The translations under genes were made by a program, and so were the position numbers. Shown in pieces: positions 1,205 to 54,745 of a DNA stretch of 64,000 bases. The stretch's first letter is position 1, and the number at the start of each line of letters is the position of its first letter. This stretch comes from an uncultured Prevotellaceae bacterium (GTDB taxonomy: Bacteria > Bacteroidota > Bacteroidia > Bacteroidales > Bacteroidaceae): assembly GCA_946626595.1 (NCBI GenBank), contig CAMOUQ010000001.1, positions 65,846 through 129,845 of the forward strand, read 5' to 3'. The notes below the pieces were generated by a model. It did no database searches and was not told the origin of the DNA. It was given only the letters and a program-made list of their open reading frames with translations.

Positions 1205-3844
1205 TTATACCGGATCGACGTCGTAGACAATCTGGGCCGAGCGATAGGGCTTCTGCCGGAGGAGGAAGTCGCGCACCTGGCGCAGGCGCCGACGGGCATC
1301 TGCCATGGAGGCCTCGACCTCGACCTTGAGGATGAGCCGACGGATGTAGAGCAACTGGACGCGCGAGACGGCTGGCGTGTCGGGGCCGAGCACACGCTGT
1401 CCAAACTGCCGGCGCAGCAGGGCACCCATGTCGCGGGCCAACTGGTCGACGACGCGCACGTCGCGGTGGCGCAGGGTGACCTCCACCAGGCGCACAAAGG
1501 GCGGATAGTGGAAGGCTTCGCGCTCCTCGAGCTGGTCGCGGTAGAGCCCGGCATAGTCGTTCGTGACGACCTGACGCACGACACTGAGGTCGGGCGACTT
1601 GGTCTGCAGGATGACCAGTCCCTGCCTGTTGCGCCTACCGGCTCGGCCTGCCACCTGGGAGAGCATCTGGAAAGCGTGTTCGTAGCTGCGGAAGTCGGGC
1701 ATGTTGAGCATGGTGTCGGCATTCAGTATGCCTACGACACTGACTCGCTCGAAGTCGAGGCCCTTGGTCACCATCTGGGTGCCGACAAGGATGTCGGTGT
1801 GGCCGTGCTGGAAGTCGAAGAGCAGACGTTCGTAGGCGGTGCGGCTGCGTGTGGTGTCAAGGTCCATGCGAGCCACCCGGGCCTGGGGAAAGAGCTGGGA
1901 GAGTTCTTCCTGTATGCGCTCGGTGCCGTAGCCCACGCCAACGAGTTCGTGGCCTTCGCACTGGGGGCAGCGCTCGGGGATGGGATAGGTGGCACCGCAG
2001 TAGTGACACGTCATGCGTCCGCTTTGTCGGTGGAGGGTGAGCGTGACGTCGCACTGGGTGCAGCGGGGATTCCATCCACAGGTCTGGCACTCCATCTGCG
2101 GGGCATAGCCACGGCGGTTTTGGAAAAGGATAATCTGCTCGCGGCGCTCCAGGGCCTCGCGCATGGCCCGGATGAGGTCGGTGGAGAAGGGGCCGTGCAT
2201 TTCCTTGCGGTGACGGCGGTCGCGGAGGTCGACCACCTCGATGCGGGGCAGCTGCACCTGACCGAAACGCTCCGACAGTGTCACCAGGGCATATCGGCCC
2301 TGCTGGGCGTTGTAGAAGCTCTCGAGGGAGGGCGTAGCCGTACCCAGAAGGGCCTTGGCCCCTACCCTACGGGCCAGGACGAGGGCGACGTTGCGGGCAT
2401 GATAGCGAGGGGCAGGGTCTTGCTGCTTGAAGGAATTTTCGTGTTCCTCGTCCACAATGACCATCCCCAACCTGCGGAAGGGCAGGAAGACACTGCTGCG
2501 CACGCCGACGATGATGTCATAAGGCTCCGCGGAGAGTTGTTTCTGCCAGACCTCAACCCGCTCGGCATCGGGATACTTGGAATGGTAGACGCCGAGCCGC
2601 TCTCCGAAGACACGGCGCAGACGCTCTACCAACTGGGCCGTGAGCACAATCTCGGGCAGCAGGTAGAGCACCTGATGGCCTTGGGCTATCTGGTCCTGGA
2701 TGAGGCGGATGTATATCTCGGTCTTGCCACTGCTGGTGACTCCGTGCAGGAGGCAGATGTCCTGGGTGGCGAAGGCGGTACATATTTCGTCGTAGGCACG
2801 CTGTTGGGCAGTGGAAAAAGCGCTCCCCATCCCAATCCCTCCCCGAGGGGAGGGCGTAGACTCTTCCGTCCCCATAATACGGGACACTTCGCGTTCGTAC
2901 ACCTCCAGCACACCACGCTCGCGCAGACCTTTCAGGGCCGCCTCGCTCTGTCCCTCCATGAGGACGGACTTCTGCAGTTCGACCAGGAGTTGGCGGTTCT
3001 GCAGTGTGAGGGCCGCGGAGGCCTTGGAGAGGTCGAGATAACGCAGCAGGAGGTCGGACTGGCGGGGTGCGCGGCGCAACTCGTCGAAGAGTTGGTTGAG
3101 ACGGTCCTGTGAAAAAAAGGCCTCGGTGAGACGTACGCAGTGGACGATGCGTGGACGGTAGTTCTGCCTCAACTGTTCGTGCATCATCAGTGCCCCCTTC
3201 TCAAGCAGGCTCTTTACGACGGGCAGGACGTTGAGGGACTTCTTGGACGGGCCAAGCGCTTCGCGAATCCCTTGTACCATTTGTGAGGCATCGAGGGCCT
3301 TCTGGAGGTCCTGGACGCGCTGTTCGCGCAGGCGTTCCATGAGGTCGAGCACGTACTGCTCGTTGCGTGTGAATGTCACATCGCTGTCGTAGTCGGGATT
3401 ATATTCCACCAGACTCTCGCTCTCCAACTTCAGTCCGCTGGGCAGCGCGGCCCTGTAGACCTCGCCCAGGGTGCACAGGTAGTAGTCGGCTATCCAATGC
3501 CAGAGCCACAATTGTTCGGGCAACAGCACAGGGGCCGGGTCGAGGACGTCGAGGACAGACTTGAAGACCCCCTCCGACTCCCCCGTGAGGGGGAGAGATT
3601 TGCCACCCCATCCCTCCGACTCCCCCGTGAGGGGGAGAGATTTGACTCCAAATCCTTCCGACTCCCCGTGTACTTTTACCACTATGGCGGAGTAAATCTT
3701 CTTGGCACCAAAGGGGACAATGACTCGACAGCCCACCCGAACGCGGTCTTGCAAGGATTCGGGCAGGCTGTAGGTATAGGTTTCGGCCAGGGGGAGGGGC
3801 AGAACGACGTCTGCTAAAAGAGATAAGCGAAGCGGATGTTCCAT
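1205..3844 (-). CDS. priA: primosomal protein N' / replication restart helicase PriA
   Basis: 879 aa. Walker A GVTSSGKTEIY and DExH-type VIVDEEHE are present. Cys-rich zinc region: CQTCGWNPRCTQCDVTLTLH...CHYCG...CPQC. The C-terminal helicase lobe contains ILVGTQMVTKGLDF and QVAGRAGR. Confidence 0.95.
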   Translation of the reverse strand: MEHPLRLSLLADVVLPLPLAETYTYSLPESLQDRVRVGCRVIVPFGAKKIYSAIVVKVHGESEGFGVKSLPLTGESEGWGGKSLPLTGESEGVFKSVLDVLDPAPVLLPEQLWLWHWIADYYLCTLGEVYRAALPSGLKLESESLVEYNPDYDSDVTFTRNEQYVLDLMERLREQRVQDLQKALDASQMVQGIREALGPSKKSLNVLPVVKSLLEKGALMMHEQLRQNYRPRIVHCVRLTEAFFSQDRLNQLFDELRRAPRQSDLLLRYLDLSKASAALTLQNRQLLVELQKSVLMEGQSEAALKGLRERGVLEVYEREVSRIMGTEESTPSPRGGIGMGSAFSTAQQRAYDEICTAFATQDICLLHGVTSSGKTEIYIRLIQDQIAQGHQVLYLLPEIVLTAQLVERLRRVFGERLGVYHSKYPDAERVEVWQKQLSAEPYDIIVGVRSSVFLPFRRLGMVIVDEEHENSFKQQDPAPRYHARNVALVLARRVGAKALLGTATPSLESFYNAQQGRYALVTLSERFGQVQLPRIEVVDLRDRRHRKEMHGPFSTDLIRAMREALERREQIILFQNRRGYAPQMECQTCGWNPRCTQCDVTLTLHRQSGRMTCHYCGATYPIPERCPQCEGHELVGVGYGTERIQEELSQLFPQARVARMDLDTTRSRTAYERLLFDFQHGHTDILVGTQMVTKGLDFERVSVVGILNADTMLNMPDFRSYEHAFQMLSQVAGRAGRRNRQGLVILQTKSPDLSVVRQVVTNDYAGLYRDQLEEREAFHYPPFVRLVEVTLRHRDVRVVDQLARDMGALLRRQFGQRVLGPDTPAVSRVQLLYIRRLILKVEVEASMADARRRLRQVRDFLLRQKPYRSAQIVYDVDPV
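2837..2854. repeat. 18-bp perfect palindrome inside priA coding sequence
   Basis: ccctccccgaggggaggg, preceded by ccccatccc. It encodes part of STPSPRGGIGMGS in the linker before the helicase Walker A. Confidence 0.85.
3570..3670. repeat. 42-bp in-frame tandem repeat (2.4 copies) inside priA, each unit carrying a hairpin
   Basis: Units start at 3570 and 3612, with a partial unit at 3654. The core is ccctccgactcccccgtgagggggagagatttg. The hairpin ctccccc-gtga-gggggag lies at 3578-3595 and 3620-3637. The protein repeat is GESEG(F/W)G(V/G)KSLPLT. Confidence 0.9.
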
Positions 3845-4464
3845 GTTTGTCCCTGCAGATTGACATTGTTCACCTCGCCCATCTTGCCCAGCGGAATGTT
3901 GTAGTTGAAGGCAAACTGGACATGCTTGGCCACCTCGAAGCCCGCACCGATGTTCCAGTCGAAGAAGGAGTGCTCGAGTTTGCCTATGGAACCTATCTCC
4001 TTCTTATCGAGCAACCAGTTCCACTGCGGACCGGTGAATATCATCAGTCCGAAGGCCGGCACGATGTTCCAGGTATAGCGCAGATTGACGGGGACGACAA
4101 ACATGTGCAACTTCTTGTCCTTGAAGACGCTCTGCTCCTGATATTCCAGTTTGCTCTGGTTGTAGAGCAGGGCTCCGTCCAGACTCAGGTTGGGCATGGG
4201 AATCTTCACTTTGACCTTCGCTCCCAGGAACCATCCCGTATGGTTCTCGGACGAGAACAGTTCGCGGCTGGCAGAGAAGCGACTAAGGTCGAGACCGCCC
4301 TCTACGCCCAGACTCCAGGGTTTCACCTTTGGCGTTGGGGCCGGAACAGGCGATTGGGCATGAAGAGAGAGAATGAGAAAATGAGAGAATGAGAAAATGA
4401 GAAGGTTAAGCGGCTGCGGCAGCCACTTTCCAAAATATCGTCTATGTGCCATAATCTTTTTCAT
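3814..4464 (-). CDS. small outer-membrane beta-barrel protein (porin-family / PorT-like fold; function unknown)
   Basis: 216 aa with a signal peptide ending LHA/QSP. It shows an alternating beta-strand pattern and a C-terminal aromatic signature NIRFAYLF. It lies directly downstream of porN and overlaps the priA start by 31 nt. Confidence 0.75.
   Translation of the reverse strand: MKKIMAHRRYFGKWLPQPLNLLIFSFSHFLILSLHAQSPVPAPTPKVKPWSLGVEGGLDLSRFSASRELFSSENHTGWFLGAKVKVKIPMPNLSLDGALLYNQSKLEYQEQSVFKDKKLHMFVVPVNLRYTWNIVPAFGLMIFTGPQWNWLLDKKEIGSIGKLEHSFFDWNIGAGFEVAKHVQFAFNYNIPLGKMGEVNNVNLQGQTWNIRFAYLF
4363..4405 (+). repeat. (ATGAGARA)n 8-nt-period repeat, plus-strand orientation, inside the OMP signal-peptide coding region
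   Basis: gagaATGagaaaATGagagaATGagaaaATGagaagg, with ATGs at 4373, 4381, 4389 and 4397. Read on the minus strand it encodes LIFSFSHFLILSL. Confidence 0.9.
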
Positions 4465-4512
4465 TTTCTCATTCTCTCATTCTCTCATTTTCTCATTCTC
4501 CCTCACCTTCTC
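4461..4512 (-). repeat. (ATGAGARA)n repeat in mRNA-sense orientation bridging the porN stop to the OMP start
   Basis: Minus-strand ATGs lie at 4496, 4488, 4480, 4472 and 4464 with exact 8-nt spacing. The block is an inverted repeat of 4363-4405. Confidence 0.9.
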
Positions 4513-5576
4513 TGTCGGCGTACGCTGGCAGCAGGAGCACTGCTGCGAGAGGACTTCTCCTTCTTCGTTTTGGCCGAAGAACCGGAATTGGAGCGACGGC
4601 TGCTGGTGGAACCACGCTGCACCTGCTTCTCCTTGGAGGCAGAGTCGGCAGTGGCGCGCTGGCGCTTCACGGCTTTGCCCTTAGGTTCGGCCACGGCCAC
4701 ACTGTCCAGGGTGTCGGGTTTCTCCTGATGGTGCCAAATGTTCTTCTCGAAGTCCTCCAACTGCTGTTCGATGCGCTTCTGCTCGGCCTCCACCTTGGCG
4801 GTGTCGGTCTCGTTGACCAGGATGCGGCCCTGCATGTTGGCGGTCTTGTATATCTTACCTTCGTAACGGTTCATGGTGAAGTAGTCGTCGGCCGTCATGT
4901 TGGTGATATTGTTCAGGTTGGAGGTCATGATGGGCAGGCGGCTCAGGTAGGGAGCAACGTCGTCGTACTTCATCCAGAAGAGCGGTTTGGCGGGTTCGCC
5001 TTCCTCAATGAGTATGGGGCACAGGGCCGTGACCTTGGCCCGGTAGGTGCCGGTGCGCTGGTCGAAGTAGCTGCTCTCCTTGATGTAGTAGCGCGTGACG
5101 TTGGCCGAGGGGATGTCGTTGTCGGCAACGGTTATCTTGCCATCCTTCTCTTCGTAATAGATGTAGTTGCGCTCCAGCACCTCCTTGACATCGGTCACGA
5201 GGTTCTTCTCGGCAAACGACTCGTTACCGTCCAGGTTGTACTTGTAAGCCGGCACCCGCTTGGCCAGGAACAGGCGGAAGATGTAGGTGAAGAGGTTCAC
5301 CTGCTGGTCCGTAGGCTCTACGGGATAGTACAGCGGAGCGTTCTTGTCGGCCAGGAGGTCGAGCTGGCGATAGATGTCGCGGCGCCACACCACGTCCTCG
5401 GGCATCTCTGCACTGGTGGGGAACATGAGCGAGGCACGGTCTGCGGTCTCCTTCTGCTGTGCCGTACCGCGCTTGGCAGCGGCGGTGCTGGTCGTTGTCC
5501 TACGTTTTGTAGGCTGACTCTGTGCAGCGACGTTGAATGTCAAAAGTAAAATTAACAATAAGGCGATGCGCTTCAT
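4503..5576 (-). CDS. porN: T9SS ring protein PorN/GldN
   Basis: 357 aa with a signal peptide. GldN-type core: VVWRRDIYRQLDLLADKNAPLYYPVEP...NLFTYIF. Its position after porM matches the canonical operon. Confidence 0.88.
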   Translation of the reverse strand: MKRIALLLILLLTFNVAAQSQPTKRRTTTSTAAAKRGTAQQKETADRASLMFPTSAEMPEDVVWRRDIYRQLDLLADKNAPLYYPVEPTDQQVNLFTYIFRLFLAKRVPAYKYNLDGNESFAEKNLVTDVKEVLERNYIYYEEKDGKITVADNDIPSANVTRYYIKESSYFDQRTGTYRAKVTALCPILIEEGEPAKPLFWMKYDDVAPYLSRLPIMTSNLNNITNMTADDYFTMNRYEGKIYKTANMQGRILVNETDTAKVEAEQKRIEQQLEDFEKNIWHHQEKPDTLDSVAVAEPKGKAVKRQRATADSASKEKQVQRGSTSSRRSNSGSSAKTKKEKSSRSSAPAASVRRQRR

Positions 5577-5604
5577 ATTATTTTCTATTTACAATTTTCA
5601 ATAT

Positions 5605-7158
5605 TCAATTCACAATCACTTCCATTGCGCTGTTCAGCGTACGTTCGATTCCGTCAGGACCGACGGCGCGGACATGGGTGATGTAGAAGCGTTTGCCGCG
5701 GTTCAGCTGGCGTATCATGTTCTTCTGGCGCAGGGTGAACTCGCTGTTCTGTGAAATTTCGGGCACGGCGTTACCCATGTTGTCGTAGAAGACCATCTCG
5801 AAACCCTTCACCGAGAAGGGGATGTTCAGCAGTCCGTCGTCGATGGCAGCGCCAAGGTTGGTCATGGCCATGAGGTTCTGCTTCGATATCTTGCCGCCCA
5901 GCAAGTGGTCGGTGCCGATGGGGATGTATGCCGTCGGGTCGGGCAACTTGCGCACACGGAAGGTGAACTTGCCCATCTCCTGCACACGGCCTTCGGTCTG
6001 TGCGGCAACGGTCACCACGGCCTCGCCACCCACGTTGGTGGGTCGGGCAATGTACTTGCCGTCGCCCTTCTGCGTGAACGAACCGCCAGTCATGGACACC
6101 TGCAGTCGGTTGCTGGGGATGCCGGGGACGCTGACGCTCATGGGGTTGTCGTAACCAGCGTACAGGACATTCATGATGTCGGCACTGACAGTGGCCGAGG
6201 GCGGAATGACGGTGTACTTCTGCTGGAAGTCGCGACGCACCTTCTCACCGCTACCGTTCAGGGTTTCTATCCAACCCGTCAGGGTGAAGTCGCCCGTCGT
6301 GTTGCAAATGGTCTCATAGAGTCCGTTGCTGCCCTTGATTTCACGGCCGCCCACATAGATGGTGGGACGGTTGGTGGTGTCGACGGCAGCCATGAATATC
6401 TGAGCCGAGAAACGTCCGCCCTGGACGATGGTCTGGGCATTGGGCACCACGTAGGCATTTACCTCGTTGACGCGGATGTCCTTGACGTCGATGTTGCTCA
6501 CCAGGCCGTGCAGCACTTCGCCCTCGGCGTGGCGCACGTCGTTCTGCAACTTGGTCAGGAGGGTGACGGCAGCCGAGGTCGGCATGCTTTCAAACATATA
6601 CTCCTGCCAGTTCTTGCCTTCTATCTTTCCTTTCTGGGGCACCTCGGTGTTCAGGTTGCTCTCGATGATTCGGCGCTGCCCCTTGTCGGTGACCATCTTT
6701 GTGATGCGGTCCCGATAGTTGTTGATGGCATCGTAGAGGTCGCGGCCACGTCCCCGGTTGGGGGCCAGCATGACGCTGCTGGCAGCCTCCAGGTCCTCCT
6801 GGTTGCGGATATTATGGACGTCGCCATTCTTGCCATCGCTCTTCTTGACGATGGCCACCTTCAGTTCCTCGGCCAGGTTGTACAGCGAGTCGCTTATCTG
6901 ACGGACATACTGGGCCTTGTCGTACCACTGCTTGACCTTGGTGGGGTTGGCCTTCATCTGCTCTTCGAAGTTCTTGTAGATACCCTCGTTGGTCTGAATG
7001 GCATTCTGCGTAGCCAGCTCGATGCCGTCGGACACGATGGTGAAACCCTTCAGCACGTCGCTGCTGACATTCAGGGCCAGCATGGCCATCAGCACGACGT
7101 ACATCAGATTTATCATCTTCTGACGCGGAGAGACTTTCTTTTTCTTTATTTGAGCCAT
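5605..7158 (-). CDS. porM: T9SS motor/periplasmic shaft protein PorM/GldM
   Basis: 517 aa. The N-terminus PRQKMINLMYVVLMAMLALNVSSDVL is the conserved GldM TM segment. Confidence 0.92.
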   Translation of the reverse strand: MAQIKKKKVSPRQKMINLMYVVLMAMLALNVSSDVLKGFTIVSDGIELATQNAIQTNEGIYKNFEEQMKANPTKVKQWYDKAQYVRQISDSLYNLAEELKVAIVKKSDGKNGDVHNIRNQEDLEAASSVMLAPNRGRGRDLYDAINNYRDRITKMVTDKGQRRIIESNLNTEVPQKGKIEGKNWQEYMFESMPTSAAVTLLTKLQNDVRHAEGEVLHGLVSNIDVKDIRVNEVNAYVVPNAQTIVQGGRFSAQIFMAAVDTTNRPTIYVGGREIKGSNGLYETICNTTGDFTLTGWIETLNGSGEKVRRDFQQKYTVIPPSATVSADIMNVLYAGYDNPMSVSVPGIPSNRLQVSMTGGSFTQKGDGKYIARPTNVGGEAVVTVAAQTEGRVQEMGKFTFRVRKLPDPTAYIPIGTDHLLGGKISKQNLMAMTNLGAAIDDGLLNIPFSVKGFEMVFYDNMGNAVPEISQNSEFTLRQKNMIRQLNRGKRFYITHVRAVGPDGIERTLNSAMEVIVN

Positions 7159-7170
7159 TTGTTTCTTTTT

Positions 7171-7227
7171 TTAGGGTTGCCTAGGATTGCCTGGGATTAC
7201 CTAGGAATGCATAGGAATGCCTAGGAC
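7171..7227. repeat. 10-bp tandem repeat x ~6 in the porL-porM junction
   Basis: ttagggttgc/ctaggattgc/ctgggattac/ctaggaatgc/ataggaatgc/ctaggac. The last unit contains the porL stop codon (TAG, 7221-7223). Confidence 0.9.
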
Positions 7228-9668: not shown

Positions 9669-9710
9669 TTAATTCTTATTCCTTAATTCTTAATTCTTAT
9701 CTCTTAATTC
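9669..9710. repeat. 7-bp tandem repeat x6 (TTAATTC family) in the porP-porK junction
   Basis: ttaattc ttattcc ttaattc ttaattc ttatctc ttaattc. The last base is part of the porP stop codon. Confidence 0.9.
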
Positions 9711-10651
9711 TACAACAGTCTCACGCTCTTGTGCAGGTTCTTTCCCTTCTTGAAGAGGTTCAGGTCGGTCTGATACCCAATCACGATTTCGTGCGTGCCG
9801 TGCAGCACTCCGATGCCTCCCGTATATGCTTCGTAGGCATAACCTATCTGCACACCGTGGAAGTTGGTTCCGACCAGGACACCGGCACTCACCGTCGGAC
9901 TGTACGACAGACCTGCATAGATGCGAAACTTCTCGCCGTTGTAGGCCATGCGTGCCGTTATGTCGCCGCGCCAGGCCTGGAAGTCTGTGCGCAGGATGCC
10001 CGTGGTGTAGAGCACGAATTCGGGATTTCGGAACCGGATGTTATAGCCACCCGTCAGGTAATAGAGCCTGTTCACCTTCATCTCATTCACCTTATCGTCG
10101 CCCAACTTCACGGTCGGGGCCGTCAGGTGCATCGAACTCAGACCGGCGTACCACAGTTGTTTGTAAGTGTATCGCAGGCCGAAATCCACGTCCAGGGCCA
10201 TGCCGTCCACCTGACTTGATGCGAATGCCGGGTCGCTGGGATCCCTGACATCGAGTTTCGAACCGTCGAAGGTTGCGTTCAGGAAGCCCACGCGGGCTCC
10301 TACGCTCAGGCGACCACCCCACAGCGGCTGGTGGAAGGCATATTGGAGGTACATCTTTTTATTGGAGAAGAGACCAATCTTGTCATTCATGAATCCCACG
10401 CCAGCGCCATGTCGCGGACTCAGGAAGAAGAGTGGCAGGTCGGCAGTGGCCAACATGGTCTGTGGAGCCTGATCGAATCCCACCATCTGCATGCTGAAGG
10501 CACCCTGTACATTGAGTTGCCCATCCAGACCGCTCGAGGCGGGGTTGAAGTAGGACTGCAGCGCCCAATAGTTAGCGAACGCTGCATCATACTGTGCACA
10601 GACAGGCAACGCCGCCAGCACGCCCACGACCAACCACAATAGTCTTTTCAT
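9710..10651 (-). CDS. porP: T9SS membrane protein PorP/SprF family
   Basis: 313 aa with a signal peptide ending CAQ. It has the family-typical start QYDAAFANYWALQSYFNPASSG and a beta-barrel-like repeat pattern. It is the first gene of the porPKLMN block. Confidence 0.85.
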   Translation of the reverse strand: MKRLLWLVVGVLAALPVCAQYDAAFANYWALQSYFNPASSGLDGQLNVQGAFSMQMVGFDQAPQTMLATADLPLFFLSPRHGAGVGFMNDKIGLFSNKKMYLQYAFHQPLWGGRLSVGARVGFLNATFDGSKLDVRDPSDPAFASSQVDGMALDVDFGLRYTYKQLWYAGLSSMHLTAPTVKLGDDKVNEMKVNRLYYLTGGYNIRFRNPEFVLYTTGILRTDFQAWRGDITARMAYNGEKFRIYAGLSYSPTVSAGVLVGTNFHGVQIGYAYEAYTGGIGVLHGTHEIVIGYQTDLNLFKKGKNLHKSVRLL

Positions 10652-26723: not shown

Positions 26724-26772
26724 GATGAACGAACTCTCTTGTATTATCAAGAATTAGAGAATGAGAGAATTA

Positions 26773-26780
26773 TATTTTTG
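26773..26780 (+). promoter_or_regulatory. -7 promoter box TATTTTTG inside an inverted-repeat-flanked segment
   Basis: Matches TAnnTTTG and lies between the 19-bp inverted repeats at 26744-26762 and 26840-26858. Confidence 0.35.
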
Positions 26781-31800: not shown

Positions 31801-32692
31801 CGGCAAATTCGACCAGTTCTCCACCTGGAACGGCCACTTCAACCTGGCCTATCACCCCGCCATGGCCAACGTACCCGCCACACTGACACTGCAGGCCCCC
31901 GAGGGGTACCTGATCAAGGGCTATTCGCTGCTTGCTGCCAAGGCCTACAGCGCTGCCCACACCTACACCCTGGAGGCTGAGGACGGCACCACCATCACGC
32001 CGAAGTTTGCAAGTTCGGCTGCCGACTTCACAGAACTGAGCCAGACGGACATCTATGCCAAGACGGCCACAATCTCTGTCACGACTACAGATGTCTCCAA
32101 ATTCTTGGCCATTGCCGACTTCGTGGTAGAACTGACACAGGAGTACCCGCTGGCTCTCCATGCCATCGGTGATGCCTCCTACGGCACGCTTTATCTGCCC
32201 TTCGGCATCACACTGCCCAACAACGTTACGGCCTACAAGGTAGCCGTGAACGGCGAGTGGGTCATCCCGACATCGATGGGCCAGGAACTGCCCAAGGAGA
32301 CGCCCGCTCTGCTCTATTCGGCAGAAGGCGCGACGACGGCCCAGGCCACCATCAACGACAAGGCCACGGCCGACGCATCGGGCAACCAGCTGCAGGGCGT
32401 GCTCACGAAGCAGCACGTCGACGGCTACGTGCTGAATCAAAAGGACCAGGAGATTGGATTCTTCCGTCTGAGCAGCACCGGCGAACTGGACGCCTACCGC
32501 GCCTACCTGCCTGCCAATGTCGGAGAGGTGAAAGGCTTCATCCTGAACTGGAGCACCGATGGGATTGAGAAAATGAGAGATGGAGAAAATGAGGAAATGA
32601 GAAGTGCCATCTTCGACCTTAGCGGTCGGCGCGTGACTAAGGCACGGAAGGGCATCTACATCATGAATGGGAATAAGGTGATTGTTGAATAA
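28811..32692 (+). CDS. multidomain exo-alpha-sialidase (GH33) with N-terminal lectin-like domains, C-terminal accessory module and T9SS sorting tail
   Basis: 1293 aa. RIP motif: RVYRIPALV. Asp-boxes: STDGGKTW, SDDNGATW, STDDGDTW and SLNGGEDW. Tyr/Glu region: YVTLTKLQNGNLGMLFED. Tail: AIFDLSGRRVTKARKGIYIMNGNKVIVE. Confidence 0.88.
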   Translation: MKNKTLLLTLLAMIIGIAAKADTGWKVTAGSQVTTEAALVSGKPYLVYYVGSGNPGYMKDTGTSYNAQSDPTPDLTAVYTFTDNGDGTWSVQNHKTFNYWGTPTANATTYFGSTTAGAWALNFQANGNIAPSCNGHSLNRSSGKIHPWSTGTAASNQFKIENVTIEEVEVDMNIVTNRTPLSAAPSGDGWYVISVKSGTYAGHTVYVPESEIEYQANRNYPLSFSKVDGQPTIDNTVYYTHIAKTANGYAWQLPNGRYLRAYNKFFPVSTEETVENVSITYSAGNGMQFIHSGYKAIPYYLGSKYFIGETNGTGGFFDVYPIDLAEARLTAWRVIIPSAGADTRLACTRDDVKGLTSVYNGGYFFLPAGVTPTTADFALVGMLNCIVDAEAQTITVEYDPTLAILPDGVSVAQGYQTAGRDSEVMLLSIVAKPFRNATGASFGISLKDGAEALISKLTLYEASNESPEIMSTGSGAPTKTVLAEVTNPQAATDMAIGNLTAGNHYYWLAATVKGDAPVGNILDAAVTSLTYTCYGAQTTLDLTDAGDPADRGAMVFETRSYPFLPRDNGSRVYRIPALVTADDGSLVAAVDKRYDSFRDIGGGHVIDIVVRRSTDGGKTWGDPVVVAKGLGTADDAKCGYGDPSLTKGKDGRLYLLFAAGNTGYFYGLNRICMSTSDDNGATWTTPVDLYETGRITDHASSFGSTPCYGLYDYFVTSGKGLYTHDGVLMYLLPAQPYTNAEKTEKTNNSHDFVFYSTDDGDTWHISETPAFVGGDEAKLEQADDGSLIASVRQSNQRGFNTGTYVKNDDGTVTFTWDQQYNTSQLTAGGYPNNQDILYYSRATDLTGADTGEPDILLHTMTTGQHANLNLFMSLNGGEDWKLVCQIQPKGVRYVTLTKLQNGNLGMLFEDQGLNEAGGYTDYNHYPINFLTITREQLLAWYDEAKPWFEEQELEGKFVKIVQGLTGHTTYGTLSGDTWTSKKHTGNKIEGLTLTKSDGKFDQFSTWNGHFNLAYHPAMANVPATLTLQAPEGYLIKGYSLLAAKAYSAAHTYTLEAEDGTTITPKFASSAADFTELSQTDIYAKTATISVTTTDVSKFLAIADFVVELTQEYPLALHAIGDASYGTLYLPFGITLPNNVTAYKVAVNGEWVIPTSMGQELPKETPALLYSAEGATTAQATINDKATADASGNQLQGVLTKQHVDGYVLNQKDQEIGFFRLSSTGELDAYRAYLPANVGEVKGFILNWSTDGIEKMRDGENEEMRSAIFDLSGRRVTKARKGIYIMNGNKVIVE
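32141..32692 (+). repeat. copy 1 of a ~0.56-kb near-identical C-terminal module shared by the two sialidase genes
   Basis: By eye it aligns to 38972-39547 at roughly 85-90% nucleotide identity, far above the rest of the two genes. Confidence 0.85.
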
Positions 32693-32753
32693 AGGGACCC
32701 TAAAGGCCCTTAGAAACTCTAAGAACTCTAAGAACTCTAAAGATAATACTATC

Positions 32754-38900: not shown

Positions 38901-39547
38901 CCTTCTCCAACAGCAACACTGCAAACACCACTTATGCCTTCATCACCCACTTTGTGGTGAAACTCACGAAGCAGTACCCACTGGCCCTCCATGCAATCGG
39001 CGATGCCTCCTACGGCACGCTTTATCTGCCTTTCGGCATCACACTGCCCAACAACGTTACGGCCTACAAGGTTGCCGTGAACGGCAATTGGGCTATCCCG
39101 ACATCGATGGGACAGGAACTGCCCAAGGAGACGCCGGCCCTGCTCTATTCTGCAGAAGGCGCGACAACGGCCTTAGCCACCGTCAACGACGCAGCCACGG
39201 CCGACGCATCGGACAACCAGTTGCAGGGCGTGCTCACGAAACAGCACATTGATGGCTATGTGCTGAACCAGGACGGCAATGATGTCGGATTCTTCCGACT
39301 GAGCGGTAGCGGTGAACTGGACGCCAACCGTGCCTACCTGCCTGCCAATGCTGGAGAGGTAAAAGGCTTCATCCTGAACTGGGACACCGACGGGATTGAG
39401 AAAATGAGAAGTGGAGAAAATGAGAAAATGAGAAATGGAGAAAATGAGAGAATGAGAAATGCCATCTTCGACCTCAGCGGTCGGCGCGTGAACAAGCCTC
39501 AAAAGGGCATTTACATCATGAATGGGAATAAGGTGATTGTTGAATAA
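32960..39547 (+). CDS. 2195-aa fusion: GH20 beta-N-acetylhexosaminidase + lectin-like/beta-sandwich domains + GH33 sialidase + shared C-terminal module + T9SS tail
   Basis: GH20 motifs: HWHLTDNQGFRFESKTYPQL, IIPEIDMPGHS and LHIGCDE. GH33 motifs: IYYRIPTML. Asp-boxes: STDGGLTW, SSDGGATW, SDDKGQTW and SFDQGQTW. Also YSSLQKLPNGDLAIIYED. Tail: AIFDLSGRRVNKPQKGIYIMNGNKVIVE. Confidence 0.88.
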   Translation: MKTKKLLILVALIATTCCAFADNAVSMLLPKPHELSENAATFDLTRNVSITDPTNSTLLASLFTTGGSPSATVTVSLVSDATLGTFDYTLAGFPNEGYKLEVTTDAITIQAVTKTGVIRAAQTLMQLAAANGGTSIPGVSITDWAAFKLRGYMHDVGRSFVSFDELKKEVDLLSRFKVNVFHWHLTDNQGFRFESKTYPQLNQATNMTRFAGQYYTQAQCTELEAYAAERGMIIIPEIDMPGHSQAFQTAMGFAMNSEQGKPVLKALLDELAAAFPLAPYLHIGCDEAGTTAAFVNEMSQYVKETLGRRVLVWNPISGVSISKANLPYIDMTEMWGTAGKKIDGLPNIDCRYNYINHFDVFADLVGIYKSNIYYTDKGNAEVAGAISGLWNDRKTPTETDIIRQNNLWANAIATAERGWMGGGKQYIETGGTTLPNSGSEFEEFADWERRFLYYKGTWLKDESIPYVKQTNIRWRITQPFPNGGTATAAFPPEESTADVLPDEYTYDGQTYTTSMATGGGIYLRHVWGTIVPAFFSSPQLNTTAYAWTYVYSPTAQTAGALIEFQNYSRSENDKAPDNGNWDRKGSRIWVNGSEVAPPTWGNAGKSINSEVDLQNENFTARKPIAISLKAGWNKIFLKLPYVSASNVRLNKWMFTFVLTDAEGKNALEGITYSPIQSLDANIDDVVTIIGDIKTYVHSKCGTAVGLYPESAATDLLASVATVEATLQSTLTADEREAQVANLQSAFETFKSNLATAAINQPLASTASETHYYTLCTPQRGSRYVTSSGAGAELGGTPTLVATSYWKFVARADGAWDIVNAYDDSYIAPNSTNNTALTASVTSPSAGWKISKASTDGQVIITSGNCQFNQTNTSSSVLSGGYRLFNWGNGTNTTDTGCQYAIEEVDEADIPYSFSFKPSDATVYTLNNTSSANRGALVYDGSSTNVSLVASANLDATNPNHQWVLYPTGTVGQYYLYNVGARKFAIPTAIAQSDKNAWVFSDNAVAVSLNSETVGTYRIKMAKDPVSGTNEAVLGVNRNLNPAVFNYNDAGSDFTITLVKGADQSAAVKAAVSKLISSQKPLTSYPQSSGWYAIQIKSKNGAAAYAGRFMQAAASLYNGLYPLIFTGAIDLQPAISEPTFLTYIDHTSWDVNTWQLPDGRYLVKNASNKFPTLSLTPGNVLCGYDNGNYFKTEGDWFADPYNSGANYFFGETTSMRTAYTVYPIDLDAAGLAPWQVTITNGSASTLLTCKRSDVKGQTAVYSGGYFFLPSDVTPKATDFAMEGMIGSPVIDAENKTISVQYDPSVSLLPDGIDIIQGNETTGKGNATSALLRMKVTPFATTTPTEVSITLSGSDQISKVAVYATDIDELHAKAASPVKLGEATVSGQSALSITMDNPTTIAVGTSAYLWVTADVKADATELATIDAAITSLTYTNDYIKANALEANVLDLTAKGNPDGQMCIYKQQTALWTPDHANGIYYRIPTMLCTDDGNIVALADYRHDHPYDLGKNASNGLGAHVIDVVARRSTDGGLTWQDETVVAAGDGKNANTWGFGDPAIVADADGTLHCLMAAGSTSYASGSGMLAMGYSKSSDGGATWTAVKDIYDDIDKGGLTIASAFTSGGKGVTFANGRMAFAFLGKVGGTTNVYPIYSDDKGQTWHIQPTVAYGGGDESKFEIMNDGSLLLSVRKGGYNGTALRAYNRTTGDASGEGIGSWGTAANWGSEMNANGCNADILYYNRSTDNPNRPDVILHTLTKSYSTYRKDLRLYASFDQGQTWKEAFQLQPGYAAYSSLQKLPNGDLAIIYEDGSIGNKDQQDCYAMNYIVLSSEALNARIDELYKESLYTTASIITQGETNTNAPFVTWTPSSGWATSFTTNATSGLAGVTVSATSQAFNRQGGYDQRVLLFRPTAAGASDVYTITAPDGYIIDGYTIGGYFGTSTQTYTLTAEDGTSVAINKNKAQQNPPTYLTISGLNKKSTTITFSNSNTANTTYAFITHFVVKLTKQYPLALHAIGDASYGTLYLPFGITLPNNVTAYKVAVNGNWAIPTSMGQELPKETPALLYSAEGATTALATVNDAATADASDNQLQGVLTKQHIDGYVLNQDGNDVGFFRLSGSGELDANRAYLPANAGEVKGFILNWDTDGIEKMRSGENEKMRNGENERMRNAIFDLSGRRVNKPQKGIYIMNGNKVIVE
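38972..39547 (+). repeat. copy 2 of the shared C-terminal module
   Basis: See 32141-32692. It differs by a 24-nt (three 8-nt units) expansion of the GAGAAAAT repeat. Confidence 0.85.
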
Positions 39548-39656: not shown

Positions 39657-40070
39657 TCAGCGTTTCTTTTTGTTGAAGTGGTCGATACCACGACGGACAT
39701 TCTCGATGAGTGCTTCCGACGAATAGGTAGCCCCCGTCACGACGTCCACCTCCTGCTTGGCAGCCTCCTTGACGGAAAGTCCCTTCCATTTGTCGAGCAG
39801 GGCACGCTTCACATGGGCAAAATACTTAGGCGTCTCCATATTGGGAAGAGCCTCAATGCGTTCAATCTTGTTCTTCTTGATATAAATCTTCACCGGAGTG
39901 GTACCGGCATACCCTTCGACATCGGCAGCCAGAGTGGTGGTATTCACCACGGTCATACCGTTTTCCTTTGTCACGACCTGCTCAGCAGGCTTCATACTCG
40001 TCATCAGCGTTGCCAGAGCCAGGATGGCAGATACTTTGCAAATATTCTTCTTTTTCATAATTTTCTTCAT
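39657..40070 (-). CDS. FMN-binding domain protein (exported)
   Basis: 137 aa with a signal/lipoprotein-like N-terminus. FMN_bind signature: VDVVTGATYSSEAL (Thr for flavinylation). Confidence 0.8.
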   Translation of the reverse strand: MKKIMKKKNICKVSAILALATLMTSMKPAEQVVTKENGMTVVNTTTLAADVEGYAGTTPVKIYIKKNKIERIEALPNMETPKYFAHVKRALLDKWKGLSVKEAAKQEVDVVTGATYSSEALIENVRRGIDHFNKKKR

Positions 40071-40117
40071 TCTCTCATTTTCTCATTTTCTCATTCTCTC
40101 ATTTTCTCATTCTCTCA
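40071..40117 (-). repeat. (ATGAGARA)n repeat bridging the AKR stop to the FMN-binding gene start
   Basis: Minus-strand ATGs lie at 40110, 40102, 40094, 40086, 40078 and 40070 with exact 8-nt spacing. The AKR stop TGA (40117-40115) lies within the array. Confidence 0.9.
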
Positions 40118-41521
40118 CCTTCTCACCTTCCTTGTCAATTCCACCAGACGACTCATCTGGTTAGGGATACGTATCAACTGCGGGCACTTACTCAGACATT
40201 CGCCACAATCCTGACAGCGATTGGCACGCTTTTCCAGGGGGATGGCCTTCTGGTAAGCCTCAACGTAGGCCTTCTGCCGCTCGGCATAGTCGGGTGCCGT
40301 ACTTTCGGGCAGGGGCAGCACCTTGTCGGTAACGGCCTGGTTGTAGAACGCAAAGTTGCCCGGGATGTCCACCCCATAGGGGCAAGGCATGCAGTAGGCA
40401 CACGTGGTGCAACCGATGGTGGGGAATCCGGCCATCTGGTCGGCGATACGTGCCAGGAGTTCGTTTTCCTTCGCCGTACAAGGTTCCAGGGGCGAGAAGG
40501 TGGCAACGTTGTCCTCCATGTGATCCATGCGGTTCATGCCACTGAGCACCGTGAGCACATTCTCGTGCGAACCCACCCAGCGGAATCCCCATCGGGCTGG
40601 TGAATCGTCGGGACGTACGGCACGCAACTGGCTGTTGATGTCCTCGGCCACATTGGCAAGGCCACCACCGCGTATGGGCTCCATGATGACGGCCTGTATG
40701 CCCAGTTTCTCAAGTCTGTTGTAGAGGTACTCGGCATCGGCATCGCCGCCACGGCGCTTTCCGCCTCGGGCATGGCGCCAGTCGAGGTAATTCATCTGTA
40801 TCTGCACGAAGTCCCAATGGTACTTATCGTTGTGGTCGAGCAGATAGTCGAAGGCAGAAACATCGCCATGATAGGAGAATCCCAGATGGCGTATGCGCCC
40901 GGCTTCGCGCTCCTTCAGCAGGAAATCGAGCATGCCATTGTCGAAGAAACGGTTGCGCAGGTTGTCCACCCCTCCCCCGCCAATGGCGTGTAGGAGATAG
41001 TAGTCGATATAGTCGACCCGCAGTTTGCGGAACGAACTCTCGTACATTGCCTTCGATTTCTCGAAGGGCCACGTCTGCGGGTTCTGGTTCGACAACTTTG
41101 TGGCCACGTAGTATTTCTCACGCGGATAACGGCTCAGCGTCCGTCCCGTCACTTCCTCGTTGTGCCCACCGCCATACATGGGGGCCGTGTCGAAGTAGTT
41201 CACACCGTGTGCAATGGCATAGTCCACCAGCCGGTCCACTTCTTCCTGTTCGCGCGGCAGCCGCATCATGCCGAAGCCCAGCAGCGAAATCTTCTCGCCC
41301 GACCCGTTCTGGGTGCGGTATGTCATGGCTACGGATTCGGGAGCCGCCTCTTTCTTCGCCTTCTTTTCCTCAAAGGGGGAAGCCATGGCACCAAAGGGTT
41401 CTGCCAGCATCAGTGCGGCAGCCGAAAAGGAGCCTAAGCCCACCCGCTTCAGAAAGGAACGGCGATTCATGTCCTGTTGTTTGTTGTCTTGCATATTATA
41501 TTCGCAATTAAAGTTTCCCAT
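40115..41521 (-). CDS. aldo/keto reductase fused to a C-terminal 4Fe-4S domain, with Tat-type signal
   Basis: Twin-arginine signal: NRRSFLKRVGLGSFSAAALMLA. AKR core: GVNYFDTAPMYGGGHNEE...YLLH. Cys clusters: CTTCAYCMPCP and CQDCGECLSKCP. The start could instead be the ATG at 41494. Confidence 0.87.
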   Translation of the reverse strand: MGNFNCEYNMQDNKQQDMNRRSFLKRVGLGSFSAAALMLAEPFGAMASPFEEKKAKKEAAPESVAMTYRTQNGSGEKISLLGFGMMRLPREQEEVDRLVDYAIAHGVNYFDTAPMYGGGHNEEVTGRTLSRYPREKYYVATKLSNQNPQTWPFEKSKAMYESSFRKLRVDYIDYYLLHAIGGGGVDNLRNRFFDNGMLDFLLKEREAGRIRHLGFSYHGDVSAFDYLLDHNDKYHWDFVQIQMNYLDWRHARGGKRRGGDADAEYLYNRLEKLGIQAVIMEPIRGGGLANVAEDINSQLRAVRPDDSPARWGFRWVGSHENVLTVLSGMNRMDHMEDNVATFSPLEPCTAKENELLARIADQMAGFPTIGCTTCAYCMPCPYGVDIPGNFAFYNQAVTDKVLPLPESTAPDYAERQKAYVEAYQKAIPLEKRANRCQDCGECLSKCPQLIRIPNQMSRLVELTRKVRR

Positions 41522-50169: not shown

Positions 50170-50256
50170 AGACCATGAATTACACGAATTTTACGAATTA
50201 GCCAGCCAATTGTCGCCGGAACTTATAATTCGTAAAATTCGTGTAATTCGTGGTCT
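50170..50256. terminator. 31-bp-arm hairpin (30/31) with 25-nt loop built from AATTCGT-type repeats, between convergent genes
   Basis: Arms agaccatgaattacacgaattttacgaatta / taattcgtaaaattcgtgtaattcgtggtct. Confidence 0.6.
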
Positions 50257-50304
50257 GGTATATTCGAGTAATTCGTGGTCTGGTATATTCGAGTAATTCG
50301 TGGT
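50245..50304. repeat. 25-bp tandem repeat, 2.4 copies
   Basis: aattcgtggtctggtatattcgagt occurs twice identically (50245 and 50270), with a partial third copy. It abuts the stop codon of the esterase-dockerin gene. Confidence 0.9.
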
Positions 50305-54710: not shown

Positions 54711-54745
54711 TAATTCTTAATTCTTAACTCTTCATTCTTAATTTG
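54711..54745. repeat. 7-bp tandem repeat x5 (TAATTCT family) at the EamA-DUF3256 junction
   Basis: taattct taattct taactct tcattct taatttg. It contains the EamA stop codon (54738-54740). Confidence 0.85.

Follow-up and report, generated by a model that had tools for sequence, protein, structure and literature searches.

Correia elements of Neisseria and the palindromic elements of Rickettsia are dispersed, inverted-repeat-bounded sequences that are co-transcribed, form long RNA hairpins and, in the case of Rickettsia, are translated within host proteins. Here, these and three further described systems are compared with an octamer repeat, (ATGAGARA)n, that builds a hairpin cassette between porN and an outer-membrane protein (OMP) gene of an uncultured Prevotellaceae bacterium. 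The cassette lies in the window, i.e. the whole 64,000-nt stretch of contig CAMOUQ010000001.1 that was analysed (positions 65,846 to 129,845, forward strand). Like the Correia and Rickettsia elements, it is dispersed, bounded by inverted repeats, predicted to form a long hairpin and translated in a host protein. In contrast to them, its arms are simple tandem repeats of variable length, and it appears to contribute a start codon and a signal peptide rather than being a neutral insert.

The Neisseria opa genes carry a pyrimidine-rich CTCTT repeat (PMC3745409), and the resemblance is that a unit whose length is not a multiple of three lies in signal-peptide codons and encodes a hydrophobic core in any frame. 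Slippage alters the copy number there and probably here, and a one-unit change shifts the frame (PMC3745409), of which we found one such allele. Our unit is, however, an octamer and not a pentamer, in-frame alleles dominate, and ATGAGARA occurs also inverted in the leader, at genes of non-secreted proteins, between genes and phylum-wide, mostly in non-pathogens. In Beggiatoaceae, Cyanobacteria and a few Bacteroidetes, direct repeats of the heptamer TAACTGA precede start codons (MacGregor 2015, PMC4679880), and translational regulation has been proposed for them (PMC4679880). Both repeats present one short, stop-containing motif at many loci, mostly in forward orientation and ending at or near a start codon, sometimes overlapping the end of the upstream open reading frame (ORF) or reversed inside ORFs, with strain differences of whole units. 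The resemblance is one of behaviour only: ATGAGARA contains ATG as well as TGA and hence forms mini-ORFs, is much used in antisense to encode signal peptides, is frequently paired with an inverted copy and has a different phylogenetic spread.

In the Streptococcus gallolyticus pil1 locus (PMC3894217), a slippage-prone repeat, GCAGA, similarly occupies a translated leader ahead of a stem-loop, the proposal being that moving ribosomes open the stem and thereby control the gene behind it. In pil1, a single leader peptide becomes longer or shorter with the repeat number, and the stem terminates transcription. In the cassette, the number of units leaves frame and ribosome reach unchanged, since each unit is a self-contained ORF, and the stem lacks a U-tract and encloses a start codon. 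The feature thus shares mechanisms with the opa, TAACTGA and pil1 systems and has the full set of defining features of none of them.

We lean towards the explanation that the locus is a slippage-driven cassette, spread between genes, from which a gene obtains its start codon and signal peptide; the chain of mini-ORFs in its leader would then be a by-product, and the hairpin an attenuator or insulator and no strict gate. The junction is composed of the following parts.

4503..5576, minus strand: porN/gldN gene (Pfam GldN, 3.4e-52)
4505-4503, minus strand: porN stop codon TGA, within the first, degenerate repeat unit (GGTGAGGG), with GGGAGA next
4461..4502, minus strand: leader (purine-strand) arm, (ATGAGARA)x5, filling the entire porN-OMP gap
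4496-4485, 4488-4477, 4480-4469 and 4472-4461, minus strand: four overlapping 3-codon mini-ORFs of the leader arm
4404..4464, minus strand: spacer and apical loop, with candidate starts ATG 4464-4462 (in the last unit) and ATG 4452-4450, and the basic n-region MKKIMAHRRYFGKWLPQPLN
4363..4403, minus strand: signal-peptide (pyrimidine-strand) arm, the array in inverted form within the coding part of the OMP gene, giving the hydrophobic core LLIFSFSHFLILSL
4354..4368, minus strand: c-region and predicted signal-peptidase site S-L-H-A/Q (slash at the cut), from translations; each copy of the cassette has SLxAQ after the array
3814..4464, minus strand: OMP beta-barrel (porin-family) gene, 216 aa (Pfam OMP_b-brl, 4.7e-14)

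A first-pass annotation of this DNA had described a stop/start chain, an inverted arm in the signal-peptide codons and a large hairpin, and every one of its sequence-level statements was confirmed on the minus strand. The leader arm was called by Tandem Repeats Finder at 4461-4500 (period 8, 5.0 copies, ~90% matches). Its mini-ORFs start at 4496, 4488, 4480 and 4472 and read, in order, ATG-AGA-AAA-TGA, ATG-AGA-GAA-TGA (twice) and ATG-AGA-AAA-TGA. Every TGA overlaps the following ATG, giving four consecutive AUGA overlaps, the last of them with ATG 4464, which is the first in-frame ATG of the OMP gene; the second is at 4452. The same program placed the signal-peptide arm at 4367-4403 (period 8, 4.6 copies, ~90% matches), and the core LLIFSFSHFLILSL encoded by this arm (4363-4405) precedes HA/Q. 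Read on the pyrimidine strand, the array consists of T-rich codons that yield F, L, I, S and H whichever of the three frames is read. A repeat search paired 4365-4403 with 4466-4504 (39 nt, 95% complementary, 62 nt between). The 16-nt double-unit pattern was matched 25 times in the window vs 0.05 expected, which excludes a chance origin. Our analysis shows how a single simple repeat can fill three roles at this junction: intercistronic leader, start codon and core of the secretion signal.

Folding of the RNA from 4350-4515 on the minus strand gave a predicted free energy of -80 kcal/mol vs -39 +/- 4 in shuffled sequences (z -10.2), with ~44 inter-arm pairs and an apical loop of ~56 nt. The loop in which the first-pass annotation had enclosed the start codon was thereby recovered. 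In the predicted fold, however, ATG 4464 is placed at the stem/loop border and ATG 4452 inside the loop, so the hairpin displays the start codons instead of burying them. The strict dependence of OMP translation on ribosomes arriving from porN, which had been proposed from the same structure, is not implied by start codons in a ~56-nt loop, as far as the model goes. Across strains, the predicted stems span 44-80 bp and -74 to -133 kcal/mol, and the main ATG always opens the ~56-nt loop. No intrinsic terminator was called on the minus strand between 4350 and 4510, and no U-tract follows the 3' arm, which is succeeded by CUUCAUGCCC. A promoter scan gave no relevant sigma-70 promoter on the minus strand at the porN-OMP junction. 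The Bacteroidota-type -7 motif (TAnnTTTG) was not found within ~500 nt upstream, which makes co-transcription of porN and OMP plausible. Searches against Rfam returned sub-threshold matches only, to plant and animal microRNA precursor models that match any long hairpin.

Spread of the cassette is indicated by its recurrence on other genes for envelope proteins in one form, consisting of a sense array, an ATG, a ~50-nt spacer, an antisense array and SLxAQ. An NlpC/P60 gene from the same sample as the window OMP allele (ERZ28612961) is headed by a cassette with a spacer near-identical to that of the window. Further carriers encode a TonB-dependent receptor (locus L030), SPOR-domain proteins (L056, L077), an FKBP lipoprotein (L051), a 1256-aa protein (L096) and an uncharacterised protein (L089). 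The spacers of the window, L030, L096, L003 and L089 have CATA..GGGAA.AGTGGCT..TGCTGCTT in common. Internal sequence between the inverted ends is therefore common to several copies (two near-identical spacers and at least four diverged homologues), and this homology, together with the NlpC/P60 copy, points to copying of the cassette between genes. A metagenome scan for the spacer returned three loci only, all in already known contexts. In most cassette copies, the array abuts the stop of the upstream gene. Among the matches listed, signal-peptide arrays with a ~50-nt basic n-region have an upstream complement in 5 to 9 of 38 cases and a downstream one in none; no complementary leader accompanies those whose n-region is a short MKR.

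The repeat itself reaches much further than the cassette. An exact scan of one genome per species, requiring three consecutive ATGAGARA units, returned at least 113 loci vs ~0.03 expected by our own estimate. Together with four further arrays in the window, this makes the structure, which had been treated as unique, a member of a dispersed family. Among the matches listed, ~106 of the 113 loci come from named Bacteroidota of many classes, including rumen Prevotella/Prevotellaceae, Paludibacteraceae, Prolixibacteraceae, Flavobacterium, Capnocytophaga, Saprospiraceae, Lewinellaceae, Chitinophagaceae, Cytophagales and Pedobacter, with up to eight array loci in single metagenome-assembled genomes (MAGs). 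Gene context was scored for 161 arrays from these matches with crude ORF calls (ORFs of at least 80 codons, first-ATG criterion). Of these arrays, 18% held or abutted the first ATG of an ORF in sense orientation vs 6.6% for random positions, and 19% were situated antisense at most 90 nt past a first ATG vs 8.2%. The stop of an upstream same-strand ORF fell inside 40% of the arrays vs 10% of random positions, a figure that is partly automatic because an array carries TGA in all three frames. At a hisH-hisA junction, HisA begins MRKIELIPAID at the ATG of the last unit, and a PGA_cap lipoprotein gene likewise takes its first ATG from the last array unit. Antisense arrays among the matches listed provide ~25 clean signal peptides of the type MKR..LIFSFSHFLI..(S)AQ, or with a lipobox, in unrelated proteins. 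Judged from these sequences, both the leader role and the signal-peptide role of the array would seem to be general. Neither the octamer repeat nor the encoded peptide was found in the literature searched, and the repeat family appears to be undescribed.

Two other arrangements of the octamer were noted in the same scan. Prevotella sp. RUI080 contains a multi-copy intergenic palindromic element (L061 1350-1790, L108 2640-2840, L109 6030-6080) laid out as octamer array, TTCCCTGCCGGACGCGCTTTCGACAGGGAA and inverted array with conserved flanks (..CCTGCAGGAGTGTGCAA). The element resembles a family of the repetitive extragenic palindromic (REP) or miniature inverted-repeat transposable element (MITE) kind, built on an ATGAGARA-type octamer. 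In a Chitinophagales MAG (L060 2028-3231), arrays of 383 nt and several of 30-60 nt are located downstream of a gene end; their related units (ATGAGAGA, ATGAGTGA, ATGATAGA and ATGAATGA) belong to a unit family expandable to dozens of copies.

The orthologous junctions mark the cassette as lineage-specific. In relatives, the order porN-OMP-priA is conserved, as is the 31-nt overlap of priA (1205-3844) with the OMP gene; porP, porK, porL, porM and porN precede the cassette and priA follows it. The C-terminal RRxRR-stop of porN is kept in orthologues. A sister species (MAG RGIG3567, OMP 75% identity) keeps the junction layout with a different spacer. Orthologues at 58-71% protein identity retain porN-OMP-priA and have no ATGAGARA array, from which it follows that array and hairpin are not needed to express the porN-OMP pair and that the cassette is a lineage-specific acquisition. 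Some of these orthologues carry 7-nt arrays instead. L125 has a 7-nt (ATTGTCA)n signal-peptide array and a similar but mismatched leader array, L127 and L130 have a 7-nt signal-peptide array and no complementary leader, and in L136 the repeats are entirely absent at the porN-OMP junction. Unit-level covariation was therefore not seen, as none of the orthologues with 7-nt signal-peptide arrays (L125, L127, L130) has a complementary leader array. The spacer of L127 holds an unrelated purine/pyrimidine hairpin. Because OMP orthologues use 7-nt arrays, microsatellite-built signal peptides go beyond the octamer.

The 7-nt arrays, (ATTGTCA)n or (TTTCAAT)n, are located at L125 2540-2570, L127 1245-1285 and L130 2550-2590, and the signal-peptide cores from such arrays in other rumen Prevotellaceae OMPs read IVNCQLSIVN and LSIFNFQLS. 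One 170-aa orthologue (P0010), at first sight without a signal peptide, proved to be a start-call artefact, with a normal signal peptide upstream in frame and no arrays. Identity of the window OMP with PorG was likewise considered and is unsupported by NCBIfam and PDB sequence search.

Repeats fill other positions in the window as well, as listed here.

40060..40130, minus strand: second intercistronic ATGAGARA array, between the aldo/keto-reductase/Fe-S and FMN_bind genes
39394..39463, plus strand: in-frame array of 8 units in a 2195-aa GH20/BNR protein, directly ahead of the C-terminal tail
32561..32606, plus strand: in-frame array of 5 units in a paralogous 1293-aa BNR protein, at the equivalent position
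26747..26775, plus strand: short intergenic array of 2.6 units between GH97 and GH43 genes, partly matched by an inverted copy ~25 nt downstream
9669-9711, minus strand: short tandem repeat (GAATTAA)n before porK
7172-7226, minus strand: short tandem repeat (GGCAATCCTA)n before porM
5580-5616, minus strand: short 7-nt tandem repeat before porN

The second intercistronic array repeats the leader arrangement: it contains the stop of the aldo/keto-reductase/Fe-S gene (40115-41521), and its last unit provides the ATG at which the FMN_bind gene (39657-40070) begins. No inverted partner was found for it at the FMN_bind gene. The arrays of the two BNR paralogues differ by three units (24 nt) with the frame kept; in these BNR/sialidase-like arrays every third unit is TGGAGAAA, which abolishes the in-frame TGA, and the longer one shows a 24-nt super-period with 95% matches. 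Both are located ~25 codons from the C-terminus of two giant, secreted BNR/sialidase-like proteins and look like they split an apparent type IX secretion C-terminal tail. The different short tandem repeats at the por junctions suggest that repeat-filled intercistronic spacers are the rule in this genome. The spacer repeats of porK, porM and porN each give stop codons in all three frames, and among the repeats of the por-operon spacers only ATGAGARA contains ATG.

Further repeats in the window are (AACTCTAAG)n at 32715-32740, directly after a gene stop, a 25-nt repeat at 50226-50304 (2.7 copies) and (TAATTCT)n at 54711-54743. Inside the priA coding sequence, a 42-nt tandem repeat (3570-3667, minus strand, 2.3 copies) encodes GESEG..KSLPLT. 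PriA measures 853, 865, 879 and 882 aa among near-identical strains, and the step from 865 to 879 equals 14 aa, or one repeat unit. This suggests an in-frame variable-number repeat in an essential helicase.

In the explanation we favour, a dispersed, slippage-prone (ATGAGARA)n, common in Bacteroidota, would have built, in a rumen Prevotellaceae lineage, a cassette of 150-260 nt at the OMP gene's 5' end. Replication slippage would change the arm lengths, and the cassette would move between genes by recombination or by some other transfer mechanism. The mini-ORF chain would arise as a by-product of the unit, in which each ATG has an overlapping TGA. Bacteroidota lack Shine-Dalgarno selection. 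A ribosome starting at a decoy AUG would stop three codons on, atop the next AUG, which is probably why an ATG-rich repeat is tolerated before starts. The hairpin of 44-80 bp would be a consequence of the inverted arms, and its most probable role is to attenuate OMP-priA expression variably, or to insulate it, relative to porKLMN, with initiation at the loop AUG.

Several points weigh against this explanation. The octamer is phylum-wide and start-codon enriched, and both arms occur at one junction in two species whose OMPs are 75% identical; this recurrence could reflect selection for a function at the level of RNA or translation and not tolerance. The unusually pure arrays suggest ongoing homogenisation or selection. 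The junctions read show neither a target-site duplication nor a transposase, for which no systematic search was made, and the context statistics depend on crudely called ORFs and on loci that had been chosen for having three perfect units.

The model of the first-pass annotation is that of a dedicated relay and gate. Ribosomes terminating on porN would reinitiate along the AUGA-linked mini-ORFs and so couple OMP (and priA) to porN, each short round of translation unzipping 8 bp of the stem and delivering the ribosome to the OMP start. We regard this as rather unlikely. For strain comparison we used ten contigs with a PorN identical to that of the window, supplemented by L133 from the spacer scan and the near-identical strain L001. 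Leader arms measure 45, 53, 67, 69, 77, 85 and 101 nt, mostly in 8-nt steps (67 nt is irregular, 77 nt is that of L001). The prediction that gain or loss of units leaves the relay unbroken held, as the chain ends in the OMP-frame ATG in 10/10 alleles with leaders of 45-101 nt. The in-frame end is common to the ten alleles, but in 4/10 GTG or CTG units turn an AUGA overlap into a 4-nt gap. At more distant orthologous junctions (58-71% identity), array and chain are absent. The gap past the porN stop is short in the ten alleles (4-22 nt), arrays abut upstream stops as described, and no promoter motif was detected upstream. In addition, a stem of 44-80 bp would not be meltable by an initiating 30S subunit, while elongating ribosomes could open it.

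Other observations speak against the relay. As every repeat ATG brings its own overlapping TGA, an in-frame chain is guaranteed, and mini-ORF chains occur also in arrays that have no gene downstream, that are antisense in genes or that form part of a coding sequence in its frame. Position by position, the unit has one profile in leader, signal-peptide, 3'-end and other arrays. Of the fixed positions in leader arrays, the A of ATG is kept least well (80% A, 18% T, compared with 85-90% A elsewhere), so that ATG is not preferentially conserved where a relay would need it. With equal profiles across contexts and the most variable A in leaders, there is no sign of relay-specific selection. The main ATG, in the 56-nt loop of the model, would be accessible without stem melting, orthologues do without the device, arm lengths are independent of each other, and the second intercistronic array (40060-40130) has no hairpin partner. 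In favour of the relay, every array AUG carries A at -3, and Bacteroidetes favour A at this position and are depleted of AUG near start codons (PMC6847099). Array AUGs would probably be used when single-stranded, and it is the built-in overlapping stop that renders them harmless. Taken at the level of sequence, nothing in the analysis seems to support a dedicated translational relay.

Phase variation of the Neisseria opa type is a further explanation that we hold to be unlikely. Here, 8-nt slippage in the signal-peptide codons would switch OMP and the translationally coupled priA, and slippage in the leader arm would alter hairpin length and hence expression level, leading to heritable envelope-protein heterogeneity. 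The unit is suited to this role, being no multiple of three, placed in leader-peptide codons and encoding a hydrophobic core as opa CTCTT does (PMC3745409), and many carriers are surface or secreted proteins. Allele diversity is extreme while PorN is constant; OMP proteins fall into clusters of 216, 220, 228, 232 and 236 aa, and NlpC/P60 ranges over 200-231 aa. In sister-species contig L137, the coding arm lacks a single 8-nt unit and is frameshifted, and the gene caller recovers 127 aa only. In the window species, by contrast, the signal-peptide arms fall into four length classes of 40, 52, 76 and 100 nt, all 1 mod 3 and in frame, with 0 of ~12 contigs out of frame. Length steps of 12, 24 and 36 nt between them suggest that OFF states are predominantly selected against. 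Since priA overlaps the OMP stop by 31 nt, being switched off might carry a cost, and the lone OFF allele might represent either a minority variant or a pseudogene. An apparent truncation of the OMP in L140 was rejected as a frameshift because a run of Ns (~2150-2260) falls exactly in its signal-peptide arm and marks a scaffold gap. Lengths of leader and signal-peptide arms show no correlation among strains.

Quite unlikely, in our estimate, is a further reading, in which (ATGAGARA)n is a selected Bacteroidota translation-initiation module: a Kozak-like AUG track with overlapping UGAs would load ribosomes or hand them from the upstream cistron to the real start, the signal-peptide copy would act as a gate opened by ribosomes, and slippage would tune or switch envelope proteins. 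If true, such a module would be a repeat-built, evolvable translational coupler without a described counterpart.

We find it distinctly unlikely that the cassette is a selected REP/Correia-like intercistronic RNA hairpin, serving as an RNase III or other processing site or as a 3'-end stabiliser that separates an abundant porKLMN message from a low OMP-priA message. All strains have a predicted stem, of 44-80 bp, a hairpin is found at the sister-species junction too, and the L127 orthologue has its unrelated hairpin in the equivalent spacer. Hairpins of array and inverted array are also multi-copy and intergenic in other MAGs (L061, L108, L046, L059). Among the matches listed, however, only ~18 of the 161 arrays have an inverted partner within 400 nt. 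As one arm is inside the coding sequence, cleavage would destroy the OMP message; moreover, there is neither a U-tract nor a terminator-like site, and the L130 and L136 orthologues have no hairpin. An invertible DNA switch, in which recombination between the arms flips the 56-bp spacer with the start codons, is very improbable: inverted repeats of 40-100 bp do flank the segment with the only start codons, but the spacer is ON-oriented in all ~15 independent OMP and NlpC/P60 cassette contigs and no recombinase gene is adjacent.

The arrays also pose a practical hazard for assembly and gene calling, as illustrated by the scaffold gap in L140, the truncated ORF call and the inconsistent starts that gene callers pick for one cassette (MAH.., MRKIMAH.. 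and MVEENEKMRKIMAH..). Leader arrays stack AUGs directly upstream of starts in the one phylum that otherwise selects against AUGs there (PMC6847099). They consequently offer a natural test of start choice by ribosomes without Shine-Dalgarno selection. Our analysis shows that, across many rumen Prevotellaceae genes, signal peptides are built from microsatellite DNA and resized by it. As the arrays differ between strains whose neighbouring PorN is identical, they are a source of rapid heritable variation in envelope proteins.

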